DNA of 45,599 bases from a virus. Lineage: Duplodnaviria; Heunggongvirae; Uroviricota; Caudoviricetes. Both the position numbers and the translations under genes were made by a program. The notes under the pieces were generated by a model. It saw only the letters and a program-made list of their open reading frames with translations, did not search any database and was not told the origin of the DNA. Where the stretch lies: IMG/VR virus record IMGVR_UViG_3300020594_000001, positions 1-45,599 of that record. The stretch is one strand, 5' to 3'. The number at the start of each line of letters is the position of its first letter. The stretch's first letter is position 1. Shown one piece after another: positions 2,431 through 34,394 of the stretch.

Positions 2431-2783
2431 TGCGCGTCACCCGTTTCAGCTTCCTGGCCCTGGCTTGCCAGCTTTGCCAGAACGACTTCCCGATTGCGAT
2501 TCAGGGTTGCCTCTGAAAGTTCCGTAGTCCGGATGCGCTCGATCAGACTCGACCAATATGCTCGAATGGCATCATTGTCTACGTTGCCCTCTTCCATCAT
2601 CGAGCACCACGTCAGCGTGCAGCTTTCGGTCGCCAGCAACGTCGCCATGATGACCGGGTGAACCTGTTCTGCCTGCATAATTTCTGCTACCGATTGGCAG
2701 AAGCGCTCGTGGATGCGTCGTAGCGTAGCGACAAAATTTTCTTTATCTTCTTCAGAAAGTTGCTCAAACGCTTGGTCTTGCAT
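2427..2783 (-). CDS. Hypothetical protein (118 aa)
   Basis: AAGGA Shine-Dalgarno; stop overlaps the ligase start (ATGA). Confidence 0.7.
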   Translation of the reverse strand: MQDQAFEQLSEEDKENFVATLRRIHERFCQSVAEIMQAEQVHPVIMATLLATESCTLTWCSMMEEGNVDNDAIRAYWSSLIERIRTTELSEATLNRNREVVLAKLASQGQEAETGDAQ

Positions 2784-2840
2784 TCTTAAATTCCTTTTTG
2801 GGAGATTGACCGCCCTGGCATGGGCTATGCAATGATTTAT

Positions 2841-2854
2841 AGTGAGTATTTACT
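2841..2854. promoter_or_regulatory. Palindromic operator copy (AGTGAGTATTTACT)
   Basis: Degenerate match to the AGTRAGYRCTYACT consensus; intergenic. Confidence 0.6.
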
Positions 2855-2868
2855 TACGGTATCGGATA

Positions 2869-3936
2869 TCACCCGCGTGCTAATCCAGAACGAAGTGACA
2901 TACGCAAGGTGACTGCGCTCTGCTGGGTAAGCGGCGTTGCCCTGTAGAACGCCTGGCGAACGACTTCGGTAGGCACCTCGTTGGGGTCTTTACCTGGGGG
3001 CAAGATGGCGATTCGAACCGTCAACCCGACTGATCGGGCGTGGAGCCCTGCTTTGATGGCGTCTTCGATTGCTGCAAATTCGCCGTCCCACATGATCGTG
3101 AGCTCTTCCAGCCCGCGCTCTTTGAGCATTCTCAGCTTGTCTAGCTGGCCCAGGGCTAGGTGCTTGCCAAAGCTGCCTATGGGCACCACGTCGCGCAGGT
3201 CTGGGTCTTCATCCAGGGCGATCTTTGCCGCGATCACGTCAAACACCCCCTCGCACAGCAGCGCGCGTCGTGTGCGAGCGACGTTGTGTGCGTTGAATAG
3301 GTGTTCGCCCGTGGATGCGAAGCCAATGGGGAAGAGGTATTTCTTCTCAGCGGTGCCAGTGGTGTCGCGCCCCTGAAAAGAGACCAACTCACCATTGATG
3401 TCGTAAATCGGGATGATGACCCGGTTCGTGTAGTCGACCACAAAGTCGCCCGCGTCCCAGAACGCATCTTTGCTGTAACGAAGGTGAAAATAGCGGGTGG
3501 CGTCCTTCGTTATGCCACGACGGGTGAGGTAGGCAAGGTTGCGGTCGCCCACGGGTAACTCAAACGACTCGGGCAGCACCAGACGCTTCGATTCGTTGCT
3601 TACAGCGAGCGCCTTACGGGCGGGACGCCAGCCGATCTCGCGCCCGACCTGCAGAATGTGTTCATCGAGTCCCTTGCCGCCAAGCCCAGAACTGGCCCGT
3701 ATGAAGCTGAAGCGGTTGAACTTCGCCTCGCAGGAACCCGAGAAGCAATTCCCGAGTCCCGTGTCTTGATTAAGAAATACCTTCCATTTGGAAGTGCCGC
3801 AGACCGGACAGGTTCTGATGTTGTATTGAGCGCCAGAACTACCATGGGTTTCGCGATACTCGACGCCCTCGCGGTCGAGGTATGCCCCGATGGGCAGTGC
3901 GTCAAGAACCTCGGCAACTTCAGGGTTTAAGGCCAT
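2869..3936 (-). CDS. DNA primase (zinc-binding domain plus TOPRIM)
   Basis: N-terminal CPVC...C..C, TOPRIM motifs LCEGVFD and WDGE, and a PGKDPNE tail motif. Confidence 0.9.
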   Translation of the reverse strand: MALNPEVAEVLDALPIGAYLDREGVEYRETHGSSGAQYNIRTCPVCGTSKWKVFLNQDTGLGNCFSGSCEAKFNRFSFIRASSGLGGKGLDEHILQVGREIGWRPARKALAVSNESKRLVLPESFELPVGDRNLAYLTRRGITKDATRYFHLRYSKDAFWDAGDFVVDYTNRVIIPIYDINGELVSFQGRDTTGTAEKKYLFPIGFASTGEHLFNAHNVARTRRALLCEGVFDVIAAKIALDEDPDLRDVVPIGSFGKHLALGQLDKLRMLKERGLEELTIMWDGEFAAIEDAIKAGLHARSVGLTVRIAILPPGKDPNEVPTEVVRQAFYRATPLTQQSAVTLRMSLRSGLARG

Positions 3937-4159
3937 TGCGGATCTTTTCTGCTATGTCGTGCTCGAACTGCGCCCGAACGCGTCTATTGCGCGCCCGCAA
4001 GTGTTCAAGCTCTTTACGGTCGACCGACATGCGCCACCCGGCAAACCCGATCACAGAAGCGGCCACCGCAATTGACCCAATCAGGATGGCGAACGTCCAT
4101 AGTAGAAATTGCGCGTAGCCTGCGATAAGCCACTTCAGAAATTCAATTACCGCGTCCAT
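3920..4159 (-). CDS. Small membrane protein (79 aa; start revised to MDAVIEF)
   Basis: Long hydrophobic N-terminal segment followed by a charged helix; overlaps both neighbouring genes. Confidence 0.6.
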   Translation of the reverse strand: MDAVIEFLKWLIAGYAQFLLWTFAILIGSIAVAASVIGFAGWRMSVDRKELEHLRARNRRVRAQFEHDIAEKIRNGLKP

Positions 4160-4343
4160 CCGACTTGCTCTCCAATTTGTGCGCTTCAAGCGCGGCATCC
4201 AACAGGTCTTTAAGCATGCGCTCCCGCTCGGTAGGCTTATCGTCCCTGCGACATACGAGAATCAGCACCGTGAAGATGCCGATTACCGTAAGCGCCATGG
4301 GAACCATGATGAATGCCAAGTTCCAATCGATTCCGCCGCCCAT
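4143..4343 (-). CDS. Small single-pass membrane protein (66 aa)
   Basis: Hydrophobic stretch LAFIMVPMALTVIGIFTVLILV; the start overlaps the helicase stop (TAATG). Confidence 0.65.
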   Translation of the reverse strand: MGGGIDWNLAFIMVPMALTVIGIFTVLILVCRRDDKPTERERMLKDLLDAALEAHKLESKSDGRGN

Positions 4344-5725
4344 TACTCTTCCCCAATCACTTCTGAAATGAAGATCATTTTTTCTAAGTCCTGGGCAATG
4401 CGAAGAGAAAAGCCATCTTGCTGGTTACGGCACGCAGCAAAGAACAGGCGCGCTTGATTCAGCGACTTCTCTTCATCGGTCTTGTTGATCGAAATGACGA
4501 TGTCAGCGATACGAATCTTGTTGAAGTCTTCAGCGACATCAGTAGCGGTAGCGACCGCTTTCTTCGCGCCTTCCCGGTTCGTCTGGGTCGCGGTCAGAAT
4601 TGCCAAGTCTTCCTGCATCGCCAAGCCACGCAGGGCGACATAGACCGACTTGGAGTTCTCGATACCACTGTCGGTCACGCGCTCAGGCTGCATAAGGTCT
4701 GCGTAGTCGACAATGACGAGGTCGAAAACGATACCCTTGGCTTTGTATCGCTCCAGCAATCGACGCAGGTCAGAGACGCGCATGGAGCCCGTCGGGAACT
4801 CCTGAATGATGAATTTGCCCGCCTTGCTCATGTAGTCTTTGACAGCAGCCTTGACCGTATGAGTGTTCGTCCCTAGCTGGCTCATTGCGACTTCAGCGAT
4901 ATTCGCATCGACCCGCTCAGCCATGATCTTGGCGGCGACTTCCAACGTCACATAAAGCACGTTGTAGCGCTGCGCCGACCCCGCAGCGGCAATGCCAAAG
5001 TCCATCAAGGCGGTGGATTTCCCGCCCTTGGCGGGGGCCATCAGCACCGATAACTCGCGCTTCCCCCAGCCTCGGTGATACAGAAGCTTGTCGAGCTCCG
5101 GGTAGCCCGTCGTCACACCCGTGGGCGGCAACTTGCCCGCCGCGCGCAGTAAACGCTCTTCTGTGCGGGCATCGATCATTTCGCCATAGTCATATGCCCC
5201 GCCATCTTCGTTGCGCCCGACGTTTGCAGCTTTGGTGATCGCTTGCTCGATTCGGTCGAAATCACGCTTATCGAGATAGCCCACCGAATCGAGGATTGCA
5301 GCGCTGATCGCCTGGTGCTTTGCGAACTGGGCCACCTGCTCCACGACATATTCACGGTCTGAAATGTCGACCTGGAACAGCCCCTTCTCGCTCTTGTCAG
5401 CGACATAGCGCGCGCAACCCACCCCAAGTTCTTTCGTGAGGACTTTGTTGATGATGTCGTGCTTGATCAGGTCGCCGATGACAGCCTTGTCGCCCGGGCA
5501 CTTGCGATACTTGTCGAAATACCGCATAGCGATATTGACCAGTCCCGCGTTAGACTCAGATTCGAAATAGTCGGGGCGAATCAACCCCTCGGTTTGCTGC
5601 ATAAACGTCACGTCACGCAGACAAAGTGCCGCGATCTTGGTCTGAAATGCTTCGTCAAACTCGTAAAGCGGTGCTGGGGCGCTTGCCCCAGCGGCAACAC
5701 TAGCAGCTGGAAGTGCAGCACTCAT
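4343..5725 (-). CDS. dnaB: Replicative DNA helicase, DnaB-like (SF4)
   Basis: Walker A APAKGGKST, VTLE motif, VIVDYADL Walker B, ATQTNR, and AEDFNKIRIAD. Confidence 0.92.
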   Translation of the reverse strand: MSAALPAASVAAGASAPAPLYEFDEAFQTKIAALCLRDVTFMQQTEGLIRPDYFESESNAGLVNIAMRYFDKYRKCPGDKAVIGDLIKHDIINKVLTKELGVGCARYVADKSEKGLFQVDISDREYVVEQVAQFAKHQAISAAILDSVGYLDKRDFDRIEQAITKAANVGRNEDGGAYDYGEMIDARTEERLLRAAGKLPPTGVTTGYPELDKLLYHRGWGKRELSVLMAPAKGGKSTALMDFGIAAAGSAQRYNVLYVTLEVAAKIMAERVDANIAEVAMSQLGTNTHTVKAAVKDYMSKAGKFIIQEFPTGSMRVSDLRRLLERYKAKGIVFDLVIVDYADLMQPERVTDSGIENSKSVYVALRGLAMQEDLAILTATQTNREGAKKAVATATDVAEDFNKIRIADIVISINKTDEEKSLNQARLFFAACRNQQDGFSLRIAQDLEKMIFISEVIGEE

Positions 5726-5728
5726 TTG

Positions 5729-6076
5729 TTAGCCCTCCTTGGCGGCTACTTCAACCCCCTGGAAGAGCTCGATTGCATGCTTGAAGATTGTTACGGGTCG
5801 CTGCGATGACTCAGAAATAACGGTCACCGTGAACTTGTCGCGCGCCTTGATCGAACCACGAATCGTGTCGCCAGACACCAGCACAATTGCCACCATGGAC
5901 CCTTCTTTCTGGTGACGCTCCAGAATGGCGTCATGCCCCTTTGCCACAAAGGGCTTCTTCCCGCCGCCTTGCAGTTTGCCCGTAACGGGTGCTGGGCGAT
6001 TCACTGTTAACGTCCTGCGACGGTGCTCGGCAATCTGGTCTTGGCGAACCACTTCCACGGGGTCAGCTTTGTGCAT
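5729..6076 (-). CDS. hfq: Hfq-like (Sm-fold) RNA-binding protein with an N-terminal extension
   Basis: Sm1-like VAIVLVSGDTIRGSIKARDKF and Sm2 FKHAI (E. coli Hfq: [21 protein letters not shown] ... YKHAI). Confidence 0.8.
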   Translation of the reverse strand: MHKADPVEVVRQDQIAEHRRRTLTVNRPAPVTGKLQGGGKKPFVAKGHDAILERHQKEGSMVAIVLVSGDTIRGSIKARDKFTVTVISESSQRPVTIFKHAIELFQGVEVAAKEG

Positions 6077-6092
6077 GAAATATCCTGATTAA

Positions 6093-6106
6093 AGTAAGTG
6101 CTTACT
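6093..6106. promoter_or_regulatory. Palindromic operator copy (AGTAAGTGCTTACT) upstream of the hfq-like gene
   Basis: Matches the consensus. Confidence 0.7.
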
Positions 6107-6782
6107 ACAAATTATGGTGAAAAAAAGCCTGTTGAATTAAGTCAGCGCCAAAGTGTTCGATGGCAACTGACTCGGGGAGCATCTTGTCTTTATAGACAAG
6201 GCGGGCCAGAACCCGTGCGGGCGCAGGTCTGGCTTGGACCTGCTGAACCAAGTATAGGTAGTAGGCATCTTGCTCTGGCAGACCGCAATAATTCGCTGCC
6301 AGAAAGATCGGGCTCTTCGCCAGTTGAAGCGTTTGGCGCTTCGCTTCGAGCCATGCCACTTCGACGTCGAGCGATATGTCGTCGTCGAACAGCTGATTGG
6401 GTCTGGGCAGATAACGCCAGCCCCTTTGAAACATGCGGTCAAAAACGAACCGCAGATAGAATGGGTAGCGACAACCGATTCGATCTGCCTCTTGGCGGGC
6501 GCGCCAGAATTGAAGCAGTGCGCCCGACTTGAAAATATCGTCAGCCACACCCGCAACTTTCAGGGTCAGTGCAGCGCCCGCATCTTGCGTCTTGGCATAC
6601 TGTGCGCGGTATTGGCTGTCATAGGTCTTCACAAACAGCTGTGTCGCCCGCGATGGCAGCATGCGTCGGTAATCGAACCAGCGCAGCGAATAAAGCTCGG
6701 GCTCAAGCTCTCGAAACTGTGGCGGGACAAGCTTTAGTTCTTTCTCGACCAACTGGGCAAGATCGTCCAATTCAAACTCCAA
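6105..6782 (-). CDS. Hypothetical protein (225 aa), first gene of the replication operon
   Basis: Long ORF collinear with the operon; no recognised motif; TTG start. Confidence 0.75.
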   Translation of the reverse strand: MEFELDDLAQLVEKELKLVPPQFRELEPELYSLRWFDYRRMLPSRATQLFVKTYDSQYRAQYAKTQDAGAALTLKVAGVADDIFKSGALLQFWRARQEADRIGCRYPFYLRFVFDRMFQRGWRYLPRPNQLFDDDISLDVEVAWLEAKRQTLQLAKSPIFLAANYCGLPEQDAYYLYLVQQVQARPAPARVLARLVYKDKMLPESVAIEHFGADLIQQAFFHHNL

Positions 6783-6853
6783 ATAAAACTGTCACTGACT
6801 TTGTAGTCTTCTGGGTGCGGAACCCGCCCTTCCAGACCTAACAGCGAAACGGT

Positions 6854-6937
6854 TAGCCGCTGTCGTATAGAAAGATTTAAGGTTTTAGAAGTTCTTATTT
6901 AAGAGGGGATGCCAAAATCGTGCTAAGTAAAGTCCGG
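6854..6937 (-). repeat. Copy A of an ~85-bp element (ACTTAG-NN-CGATTTTGGCATCCCCTCT box, AT-rich tract, GCGGCTA)
   Basis: The 19-bp core at 6902-6920 is identical, in inverted orientation, to 36549-36567. Confidence 0.8.
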
Positions 6938-7012
6938 TGTCCGCTCACAGGAAGCAAGAATGGGCGCGGCTACAGCGAAGCGTCCACTCTTACTTTCTTT
7001 TAAATCAATGAC

Positions 7013-7750
7013 TTAATCTTCAGAGTATGCAGCGATAACTTCCGCAACGAACCCCGACCTCACAATGTCCTGACGGTCGAAGGTAATCACCTTTACGCTG
7101 GGGATGTGCTGGATGCGGTGCGCGGCGTCCAACAAGCCCGAATTGGGGATGTCTGTCTGGGCGGCATCGCCGTCAACCACGACTTTGCAGCCCTCCCCGA
7201 TACGGGTAAGAAAGAGCTTCATCTGGCCCGGGGTAGCGTTCTGCGCTTCGTCAAAGAGCACGAATGCGTTTCTGAACGTGCGGCCACGCATGAACGCCAG
7301 GGGAACCGCCTCGATCTTGCCCGCTTTCAGGAAATATTCTGTCGGTCCCTTGCCCAGGCGCTCGTAGAGGATTTCTTTTACGGGTGCCAAGTAGGGCTCA
7401 AACTTTTCCGCAAGCTCCCCTGGGAGAAAGCCAAACTCTTCTTCACTCTCGACTGCGGGACGCGTCACGATGATCTTGTCGACGCGGTGGCTTTCAAGCA
7501 TTTCTGCTGCAATGGAAGTTGCGATGTAGCTTTTGCCAGTGCCCGCTGGCCCCAGGCCAAAGGTGACATCAAAGTTCTTGATCGCGTTGATGTAGCGTTG
7601 CTGCTTGTCGTTCTGAGCAACCAGGGGCTCGACCGCGCGCTTGTGGGTCGCGGGGCGTTGCAGTTGCTCATGAAGGTCTTCATCGTTCGCTGCGACGCGC
7701 TTGCGATTCTGGGCCAGGGTAGGGACTTTACGTTTAATGCTGCGGGCCAT
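7013..7750 (-). CDS. phoH: PhoH family ATPase
   Basis: GPAGTGKS, RPAVE, FGFLPG, RGRTF, DEAQN, TRIGEG and GDAAQ motifs. Confidence 0.95.
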   Translation of the reverse strand: MARSIKRKVPTLAQNRKRVAANDEDLHEQLQRPATHKRAVEPLVAQNDKQQRYINAIKNFDVTFGLGPAGTGKSYIATSIAAEMLESHRVDKIIVTRPAVESEEEFGFLPGELAEKFEPYLAPVKEILYERLGKGPTEYFLKAGKIEAVPLAFMRGRTFRNAFVLFDEAQNATPGQMKLFLTRIGEGCKVVVDGDAAQTDIPNSGLLDAAHRIQHIPSVKVITFDRQDIVRSGFVAEVIAAYSED

Positions 7751-7776
7751 ATGTGCTACCTATGGGAGTGGGGAAC

Positions 7777-8094
7777 TCAGGGCTGGACGCCAAACCTCTT
7801 CATTTGGTCTGCGATGGCTTGGTTAATCCAGTCGATTTTCTCGTTGTCGCGAATCTGAAGGTCGCGGTATTGCTTCTTTAGCGCTGTGTATGCGCGTGAT
7901 AGCGTTGATAGGCGCACTTTCCCGTCCTGGCCCGGGACGATGGTGGGCGCGTCAGCGCTACGCTCCATAGCGCTGACGGGCGCTACGAGGATCGACTCTT
8001 TAGGGGGTTGCGTTGAGCAGCCGCACAAGATCGCTACTAAGCACAGGGTCACCAGGACAAGCCATGGCGGGACCGTTACCGGAGGGCGGTTCAT
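7777..8094 (-). CDS. Outer-membrane spanin (Rz1-like lipoprotein); start revised to MNRPP
   Basis: Hydrophobic signal ending in lipobox LCG-C; overlaps the Rz-like gene in another frame. Confidence 0.7.
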   Translation of the reverse strand: MNRPPVTVPPWLVLVTLCLVAILCGCSTQPPKESILVAPVSAMERSADAPTIVPGQDGKVRLSTLSRAYTALKKQYRDLQIRDNEKIDWINQAIADQMKRFGVQP

Positions 8095-9712: not shown

Positions 9713-9742
9713 ATTTTAAGTAAGCACTCACTTACACTTCAA
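9713..9742 (-). promoter_or_regulatory. Sigma70-like lysis promoter (TTGAAG-18-TAAAAT) with an operator (9719-9732) in the spacer
   Basis: -35 at 9737-9742, -10 at 9713-9718; operator AGTAAGCACTCACT. Confidence 0.65.
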
Positions 9743-34365: not shown

Positions 34366-34394
34366 ATTGTAAGTGAGTGCTTACTTACATTCAA
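34366..34394 (-). promoter_or_regulatory. Sigma70-like portal promoter (TTGAAT-17-TACAAT) with an operator (34372-34385) in the spacer
   Basis: -35 at 34389-34394, -10 at 34366-34371. Confidence 0.72.

Follow-up and report, generated by a model that had tools for sequence, protein, structure and literature searches.

Why should a phage carry a gene for an Hfq-like protein immediately ahead of its replicative helicase gene, and what might such a protein do there? Few bacterial RNA chaperones have been studied as thoroughly as Hfq. Mutagenesis has defined three faces on it that bind RNA, and Q8, R16 and Y25 substitutions serve as the standard mutants for them. The gene that raises the question lies in the stretch of DNA analysed here (the window), which comprises the first 45.6 kb (45,599 nucleotides) of a 109,599-bp IMG/VR virus record with a CheckV completeness of 100%. 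The open reading frame encodes 115 amino acids and begins with an ATG, 7 nt downstream of an AGGA Shine-Dalgarno sequence. The rest of the originally noted range, 6077-6106, consists of a 16-nt leader and a 14-bp palindrome (Table 1). In the window this leader contains neither a hairpin nor a U tract, judged by reading the sequence and its aligned flanks; an Rfam search of the whole window returned 0 matches, and a repeat search of positions 5600-7100 found nothing notable. The protein matched no family in PHROGs, and both a megablast of positions 2800-7800 and a tblastn search with the protein against 50,697 phage records came back empty. Among PLSDB plasmids, tblastn recovered only canonical Bacillales hfq genes, at <=45% identity over residues 48-105.

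Table 1. Features of the helicase-primase region in the window, followed by features located in the loci of relatives (coordinates prefixed by locus).
Feature	Coordinates	Strand	Evidence
Next palindromic box, just past the primase stop; start of the next unit	2841..2854	.	Motif count
DnaG-type primase, last gene of the unit	2869..3936	-	Pfam DNAG_N + Toprim_2, PHROG 47
92-aa ORF between dnaB and primase	3920-4198	-	
66-aa ORF between dnaB and primase	4143-4343	-	
DnaB-like replicative helicase; start 3 nt past the Hfq-like stop	4343..5725	-	Pfam DnaB_C, PHROG 19
Hfq-like ORF, 115 aa	5729..6076	-	ORF list; Pfam Hfq 41.8 bits; start backed by homologues' aligned N-termini
Hfq/Sm domain, residues 46-107	5756..5941	-	Pfam, AlphaFold2 model, Foldseek, family alignment, alignment to E. 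coli Hfq
N-terminal extension, residues 1-45: low-confidence helix 6-21, then basic disordered linker	5942..6076	-	AlphaFold2, pLDDT 53-70
16-nt leader with Shine-Dalgarno AGGA (6083-6086)	6077..6092	-	Sequence reading
Palindromic box AGTAAGTGCTTACT, overlapping the upstream gene's stop codon; then -10-like hexamer TTTAAT	6093..6106	.	Motif count, flank alignment
225-aa all-alpha protein (PHROG 2500), upstream of the Hfq-like gene	6105..6782	-	PHROG, relatives' loci, AlphaFold
PhoH-like ATPase, conserved upstream neighbour	7013..7750	-	Pfam PhoH 246.7 bits
68-69-aa ORFs just before dnaB	L037:2281-2490 (Stenotrophomonas phage BUCTxx99), L038:2277-2483 (Xanthomonas phage JGB6)		
Leaders with hairpin and U run, relatives	L012:5771-5880, L013:5679-5788, L015:4965-5074, L017:1213-1322, L030:1257-1366, L035:2466-2575		

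That the protein is Hfq-like, as had been proposed from a manual alignment, is borne out by both profile and structure. The Pfam Hfq profile PF17209 matches residues 49-105 with 41.8 bits (E 8.3e-11, cut-off 27) and recognizes 116 of 120 family members at E<=0.001, and the best solved relative by sequence is the B. subtilis Hfq of entry 3AHU (E 8.8e-7). An AlphaFold2 model built from eight homologues places a helix at residues 48-58, followed by strands at 61-66, 71-79, 83-88, 94-98 and 102-107, with a pLDDT of ~87-92 over residues 50-100; this is the N-terminal helix and five-stranded bent sheet that characterize the Sm fold. When the model was compared with the PDB by Foldseek, Hfq entries accounted for all 50 of the top 50 matches, and the best core alignments, to B. 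subtilis, S. aureus and L. monocytogenes Hfq chains, superimposed ~60 residues with an rmsd of 1.0-1.3 Å. The Hfq-type Sm2 motif, [YF]KHAI, is present as F98-K99-H100-A101-I102. Against the NCBIfam Hfq equivalog TIGR02383 the protein scores 37.7 bits, below the cut-off of 61.7. Residues 46-107 are a genuine, divergent Hfq/Sm domain.

Which of the three working surfaces does this domain retain? Alignment to E. coli K-12 Hfq (from NC_000913.3) by BLASTP and hhalign gives ~34% identity over 62 residues and reproduces the residue assignments of the original prediction: D9, L12, V22, I24, L26, V27, G29, G34, I36, D40, F42 and K56-H57-A58-I59 are retained, and the substitutions are Y25>V, I30>D, K31>T, R16>Q, R17>K, R19>G, Q8>H and F39>R. 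The conclusion drawn from them, that the proximal face is kept and the rim and distal faces are lost, stands for the rim and distal faces across the whole family; the proximal face is better described as remodelled. The rim arginine patch R16, R17 and R19 is absent, its positions being occupied by Q56, K57 and G59, as is the distal A-rich (ARN) site of Y25, I30 and K31, which has become V65, D70 and T71. Rim arginines are needed for, and catalyse, annealing (PMC3753642). In the proximal uridine pocket, F82 (F42 in E. coli), K99 (K56) and H100 (H57) are kept, Q8 has been exchanged for an invariant histidine, and F39>R and Q41>K accompany it; all three exchanges are fixed across the family. K46 possibly corresponds to E. 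coli K3, as BLASTP pairs the phage AKG with the M-AKG of E. coli Hfq. The β3-β4 loop is 2-3 residues longer than in E. coli Hfq, and the charge of the domain core, ~+4, is the same.

The same pattern extends well beyond the window. A family profile search of 1.84 billion cluster representatives recovered 250 clusters at E<=1e-10, rising to 1487 when the threshold was relaxed to E<=1e-3, and an alignment of 156 members defines the signature KGHD..L...Q, RDK[YF]TxT and [YF]KHAIE, represented in the window copy by K46, G47, H48, D49, L52, Q56, G69, G74, R79, D80, K81, F82, T83, T85, F98, K99, H100, A101, I102 and E103. Within this alignment G47, H48, D49 and K99 are invariant, and K46, L52, Q56, G74, R79, D80, T83 and I102 each exceed 94%; position 81 is K or R and position 82 Y or F in all or nearly all members, position 98 is Y or F in all, and H100, A101 and E103 occur in 83-88% (H100 in 138 of 156). 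At the rim, Q occupies the R16 position in 149 of the 156 proteins, the R17 position is mostly D or E, and the R19 position is G, K or R. At the distal face, the Y25 position (65) is T, V or I and never aromatic, and the I30 position (70) is E or D in 91 of the 156. Because residues of the rim and distal faces are variable or acidic and the proximal-type residues are invariant, the whole family, and not the window copy alone, is by its residue pattern a one-face Hfq, with a proximal-type pocket only. Ahead of the domain, the basic N-terminal extension of ~40 residues that had been noted from the sequence is indeed there, spanning residues 1-45 with a net charge of +3 over residues 1-39. Across the family the segment before the conserved core measures 6-67 residues and is R/P/S-rich and mildly basic, its sequence not conserved.

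The gene's place directly before dnaB, which had been observed in the window, holds across ~25 distinct contigs with sufficient flank. A word-indexed search returned 8 close homologues, and an 8-member alignment was used for the locus search; the loci covered were a Castellaniella MAG contig together with JGI contigs, 11 from IMG/VR, 2 from a genome collection, 10 from metagenomes and 8 random family representatives. The recurrent order is PhoH, the ~225-aa PHROG 2500 protein, the Hfq-like protein, DnaB, 0-2 small ORFs and the DnaG-type primase, with an ATP-dependent ligase further on; seven of the eight random representatives were informative, and all seven keep it. A single locus (L040) departs from direct adjacency, with a 77-aa ORF between the Hfq-like gene and dnaB. 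In all the others dnaB starts at -4 to +18 nt relative to the stop of the Hfq-like gene. Identity to the window copies across these loci is 27-52% for the Hfq-like protein, 29-56% for the 225-aa protein and 53-77% for DnaB. The interval between dnaB and primase is less regular: in the window it holds two overlapping small ORFs with hydrophobic, membrane-like segments, in relatives other small ORFs or none, and in phage nickie six small ORFs as against 0-2 elsewhere.

A constant companion of the Hfq-like gene is that of the 225-aa protein, which lies on its upstream side, or directly before dnaB where the Hfq-like gene is absent, in every locus with enough flank, including those of SSU5, B1VFA and nickie. 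AlphaFold predicts an all-alpha structure for it with a pLDDT of 94. Foldseek found no PDB match for this fold, and the best VIA match, at Z 5.2, is below noise for helical proteins; matches in AFDB are unnamed relatives only, and those in the Atlas are hypothetical proteins only. It is a candidate initiator or loader. A direct partnership between the Hfq-like protein and the helicase was also considered. The complex prediction for DnaB with the Hfq-like protein gave a score of 0.00, which counts neither way on binding, and a weak search for fused Hfq-like forms of 250-2000 aa, including Hfq-DnaB fusions, found none. Neither the complete 109.6-kb genome nor any of five relatives (W01-W03, G001 and G002), with or without an Hfq-like gene, contains a member of the Pfam SSB family PF00436, and SSB distribution therefore does not discriminate; with no SSB gene found, this phage group depends either on the SSB of its host or on an ssDNA-binding protein that has escaped recognition.

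The family belongs to phages. In a genome set representing 185,579 prokaryote species by one genome apiece, the pattern PFV[AP]KGHD occurs at only 2 loci, both of them MAG contigs with the same phage module, a distribution that marks the gene as one of a phage lineage and not a cellular one. A related phage lies inside a 704-kb contig of a Castellaniella sp. MAG (L002, JAUCCV010000002.1, 98476-118811), with a DnaB 77% and an Hfq-like protein 52% identical to those of the window, and its location in a Castellaniella-binned contig is a host clue, pointing to Alcaligenaceae. The same locus also contains an Acb2/Tad1-like anti-defence gene, a gene with a PNKP-type HAD domain, and SelU and SelD-like genes.

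How deep does the arrangement reach among cultured phages? By DnaB (39-45% identity), the nearest comprise Pseudomonas phage nickie with its kin, Rhizobium phages such as B1VFA, phages of Stenotrophomonas and Xanthomonas, and SSU5-type phage-plasmids. In nickie, whose host is P. syringae, the slot between the PHROG 2500 protein and DnaB is occupied by gp117 (YP_009620715.1), an 89-aa protein annotated as hypothetical whose gene overlaps the dnaB start. It aligns with the family by hhalign at 96% probability (E 1.6e-9) and was the second-best match in a Foldseek search of viral models. It differs in having FDNY and KSSI in place of the RDK and KHAI signatures, in its short N-terminus and in a Pfam Hfq score of 23.4 bits, below the cut-off. 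Judged by these comparisons, gp117 is a divergent homologue of the Hfq-like family in the same slot; it is the only cultured relative found, and as such offers a direct experimental handle. In SSU5 and Rhizobium phage B1VFA the 225-aa gene stands directly before dnaB with nothing between. Short ORFs of 68-69 aa stand just before dnaB in Stenotrophomonas phage BUCTxx99 and in Xanthomonas phage JGB6. As members of the family these are rejected, with hhalign probabilities of 2% and 1% and no Pfam match. By eye they show an Sm1-like pattern (VVVFIDGQDIAGEFAGYD), and they may be another Sm-like occupant of the slot. Since the pre-dnaB slot is variable at this depth, the Hfq-like gene is accessory to the helicase unit, not indispensable.

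The transcriptional context amends one part of the original prediction, which had placed the gene behind its own operator: the palindrome is one of 13 copies of a genome-wide promoter-like box. The consensus AGTRAGYRCTYACT has 13 matches in the window against 0.06 expected. The copies sit at gene boundaries, and most extend to TGTA-box-TACA followed by a -10-like TANNNT; at the box before the Hfq-like gene, the hexamer TTTAAT overlaps the last base of the box. A sigma-70 and terminator consensus scan of positions 2700-7100 found nothing above shuffled expectation. Between the box at 6093 and the next one along the direction of transcription, at 2841, the Hfq-like gene, dnaB, the pair of small ORFs and the gene for primase are enclosed as a single unit. 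Most relatives have a related palindrome (of AGTCAG-NN-CTGACT type) and TATAAT upstream of the Hfq-like gene. Rhizobium phage B1VFA, which has no Hfq-like gene, carries the exact window-type box between its 225-aa gene and dnaB (L021:4450-4463); as B1VFA is a phage of a different host class, the box is common to distant members of the phage group. Its placement in the window and in relatives makes the Hfq-like gene the promoter-proximal head of the helicase-primase unit.

Two features of the leaders deserve description in their own right. At several boxes the start codon follows 8-11 nt past the -10-like hexamer (at 9719-9732, TAAAAT, 9 nt and ATG; at 34372-34385, TACAAT, 8 nt and ATG; also at 6093-6106), a spacing whose shortness suggests leaderless or nearly leaderless transcripts. 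In one subclade the Hfq-like leader is 45-54 nt long and contains a ~4-bp GC hairpin followed by a run of ~U5, for example GGGGCACCGACCCCUGUUUUU. This arrangement resembles the hairpin and U-tail module that is bound by the proximal face of Hfq. In the 110-kb relative G001, hairpin and U run occur in the Hfq-like leader only, among ~five box promoters.

What, then, might the protein do? Beyond the fold, the family, the residue pattern, the fixed slot, the coupling and the promoter box, we infer ring formation, nucleic-acid binding and a role in replication. The reading that we tentatively favour is that the protein acts within the phage replication module as a nucleic-acid-binding ring with one working surface. 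The suggestion that an Sm ring has been repurposed for replication fares well on genomic context, with slot, coupling and promoter box all pointing to it. The protein, a divergent Hfq paralogue of one lineage of ~100-120 kb phages, would assemble into an Hfq-type ring with a single nucleic-acid surface, the remodelled and more basic proximal pocket of K46, H48, R79, K81, F82, K99 and H100. Such a pocket may bind single-stranded, probably U-rich, RNA or ssDNA. Having lost both the A-rich site of the distal face and the arginine patch of the rim, the protein would not act as an sRNA-mRNA matchmaker. With dnaB translationally coupled to the Hfq-like gene, it would be made in step with DnaB and primase, and its substrate could be RNA or ssDNA at the replication origin or the fork, for instance the 3' ends of transcripts or primers; or it could serve as an adaptor for DnaB.

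Three considerations favour this replication role. Position and coupling stay constant while the Hfq-like protein diverges to ~30% identity; Hfq-like genes of archaeal plasmids adjoin helicase genes, an independent parallel; and the gene order is like that of initiator-loader-helicase cassettes such as SPP1 38-39-40. Against it, the support is all genomic context, and gene order within one lineage may reflect descent, not function. SSU5 and Rhizobium B1VFA replicate without the gene, which is hence dispensable or replaceable, and the lack of fused Hfq-DnaB forms is weak evidence in the same direction. To our knowledge, moreover, the Sm fold occurs in no known helicase loader or replisome protein. 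Finally, the retained surface is the one that binds sRNA 3' tails, and an RNA-regulatory role would fit it equally well. It is possible, if rather doubtful, that the Hfq/Sm ring is a dedicated replisome component, whether helicase adaptor or loader or a factor for primer, transcript or ssDNA ends, throughout a large clade of ~100-120 kb phages and phage-plasmids. If true, no bacterial-type Sm protein would have been given a role in DNA replication before, and the archaeal-plasmid Hfq-like genes beside helicase genes would be a parallel.

The retained surface invites a different proposal, in which the protein is a sponge for host sRNAs: its proximal pocket would sequester their U-rich 3' ends with no mRNA presentation or annealing, and host stress responses would be blunted early in infection. 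The invariance or near-invariance of K46 (possibly K3), F/Y82, K99 and H100 fits such a sponge, as does the family-wide loss of the rim and distal faces, given that the rim arginines are required for annealing (PMC3753642). However, strict position and translational coupling to dnaB in ~25 lineages would be unexpected for an anti-host accessory gene, and to work as a sponge the protein would have to exceed host Hfq, itself abundant, in number, yet its gene shares a unit with low-copy replisome genes. The fixed changes Q8>H, F39>R and Q41>K also mean that specificity may differ from that of Hfq. Such a role is, on balance, unlikely.

T4 RegA is an RNA-binding repressor encoded within the T4 replication gene cluster, and by analogy the Hfq-like protein could regulate phage mRNAs, repressing translation of the helicase-primase unit or autoregulating it. 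The gene comes first in that unit, with translation of dnaB coupled to its own, and in one subclade its leader carries the GC hairpin and U5, in G001 as the sole such leader among the box promoters. Yet neither element is present in the 16-nt leader of the window copy, the hairpins of the relatives amount to only ~4 bp, and no target has been identified, which leaves regulation of this kind quite unlikely. It is very improbable that the protein acts as a poison subunit, forming mixed, defective hexamers with host Hfq: it has the same fold and retains the [YF]KHAI strand of the subunit interface, but identity to E. coli Hfq is as low as stated above, the β3-β4 loop is longer by 2-3 residues, and the protein has an N-terminal arm in addition. 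That the gene is simply a captured, ordinary host hfq with canonical function is scarcely credible, despite automatic annotation labelling relatives 'RNA chaperone Hfq', since the protein misses the TIGR02383 equivalog cut-off (37.7 vs 61.7 bits), has family-specific invariant residues, has lost the rim and distal sites and is almost never found in cellular genomes.

We return to the favoured reading, of a one-surface ring working in the replication module, and set the protein beside known systems. It is most like bacterial Hfq (PF17209) of the Bacillales type (B. subtilis YmaH 3AHU/3HSB, S. aureus 1KQ2, L. monocytogenes 4NL2), with which it shares the Sm fold, the glycines and aspartate of Sm1, [YF]KHAI, and three residues of the proximal pocket for uridine, an aromatic, a Lys and a His. 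Unlike bacterial Hfq, it has Q-(D/E/K)-x-(G/K) in place of the rim RRER, has lost distal Tyr25 and has an acidic residue at the Ile30 position. Its disordered extension is N-terminal, whereas that of bacterial Hfq is C-terminal, and its gene belongs to a phage replication operon, unlike the hfq gene of E. coli, which has miaA and hflX as neighbours. Other phages also encode Sm/Hfq-like proteins: those of mycobacteriophages Tonenili and Phabba, annotated as 'Hfq-like domain-containing protein', Adephagia gp39, proteins of Gordonia phages and the cyanophage-type pentameric Sm-like protein; these are small, functionally uncharacterised Sm folds with 10-25% identity to the present family and without the KGHD, RDK[YF]T and KHAIE signature. 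The literature search found no functional study of phage or plasmid Sm/Hfq-like proteins and no paper on the Hfq-like family of the helicase unit. The gene is a real, phage-lineage one-face Hfq at the head of a helicase-primase unit, and its family is uncharacterised. What it represents is a natural family of at least 250 sequence clusters in which one Hfq face has been kept, in altered form, and two discarded, fixed at that position; were it an sRNA sponge, it would constitute a new route of phage host takeover. Its most likely job, however, is probably in the replication module, not as a classical small-RNA matchmaker.

Helicase loader genes can stand directly before the helicase gene, as in the G38P-G39P-G40P series of SPP1. 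The phage unit is like the SPP1 cassette in presenting a ~225-aa protein, a ~115-aa protein and a DnaB-type helicase in order and tightly coupled, and the Hfq-like gene has the placement of a loader gene, directly upstream of the helicase gene and behind a shared promoter box. The resemblance is one of arrangement: neither fold nor sequence relates the protein to the known loaders DnaC/DnaI, lambda P, SPP1 G39P, T4 gp59 or DciA, and only Hfq/Sm families match. Another counterpart is found on archaeal mobile elements. The zinc-finger-Hfq-like proteins encoded by plasmids of Thermococcus and Methanococcales (Krupovic et al. 2013, PMC3543421) likewise join an Hfq-like domain to an N-terminal nucleic-acid-directed module and have their genes beside one for a replicative helicase, the Thermococcus plasmid Hfq-like genes adjoining helicase genes in the same transcription unit (PMC3543421). 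Unlike the phage gene, the archaeal gene lies downstream of the helicase gene and its product carries a C2H2 zinc finger instead of a disordered basic arm. Should the phage protein prove to work with the replisome, Sm-protein biology would be extended to DNA replication, and the association of Hfq-like and helicase genes on archaeal plasmids would be explained.
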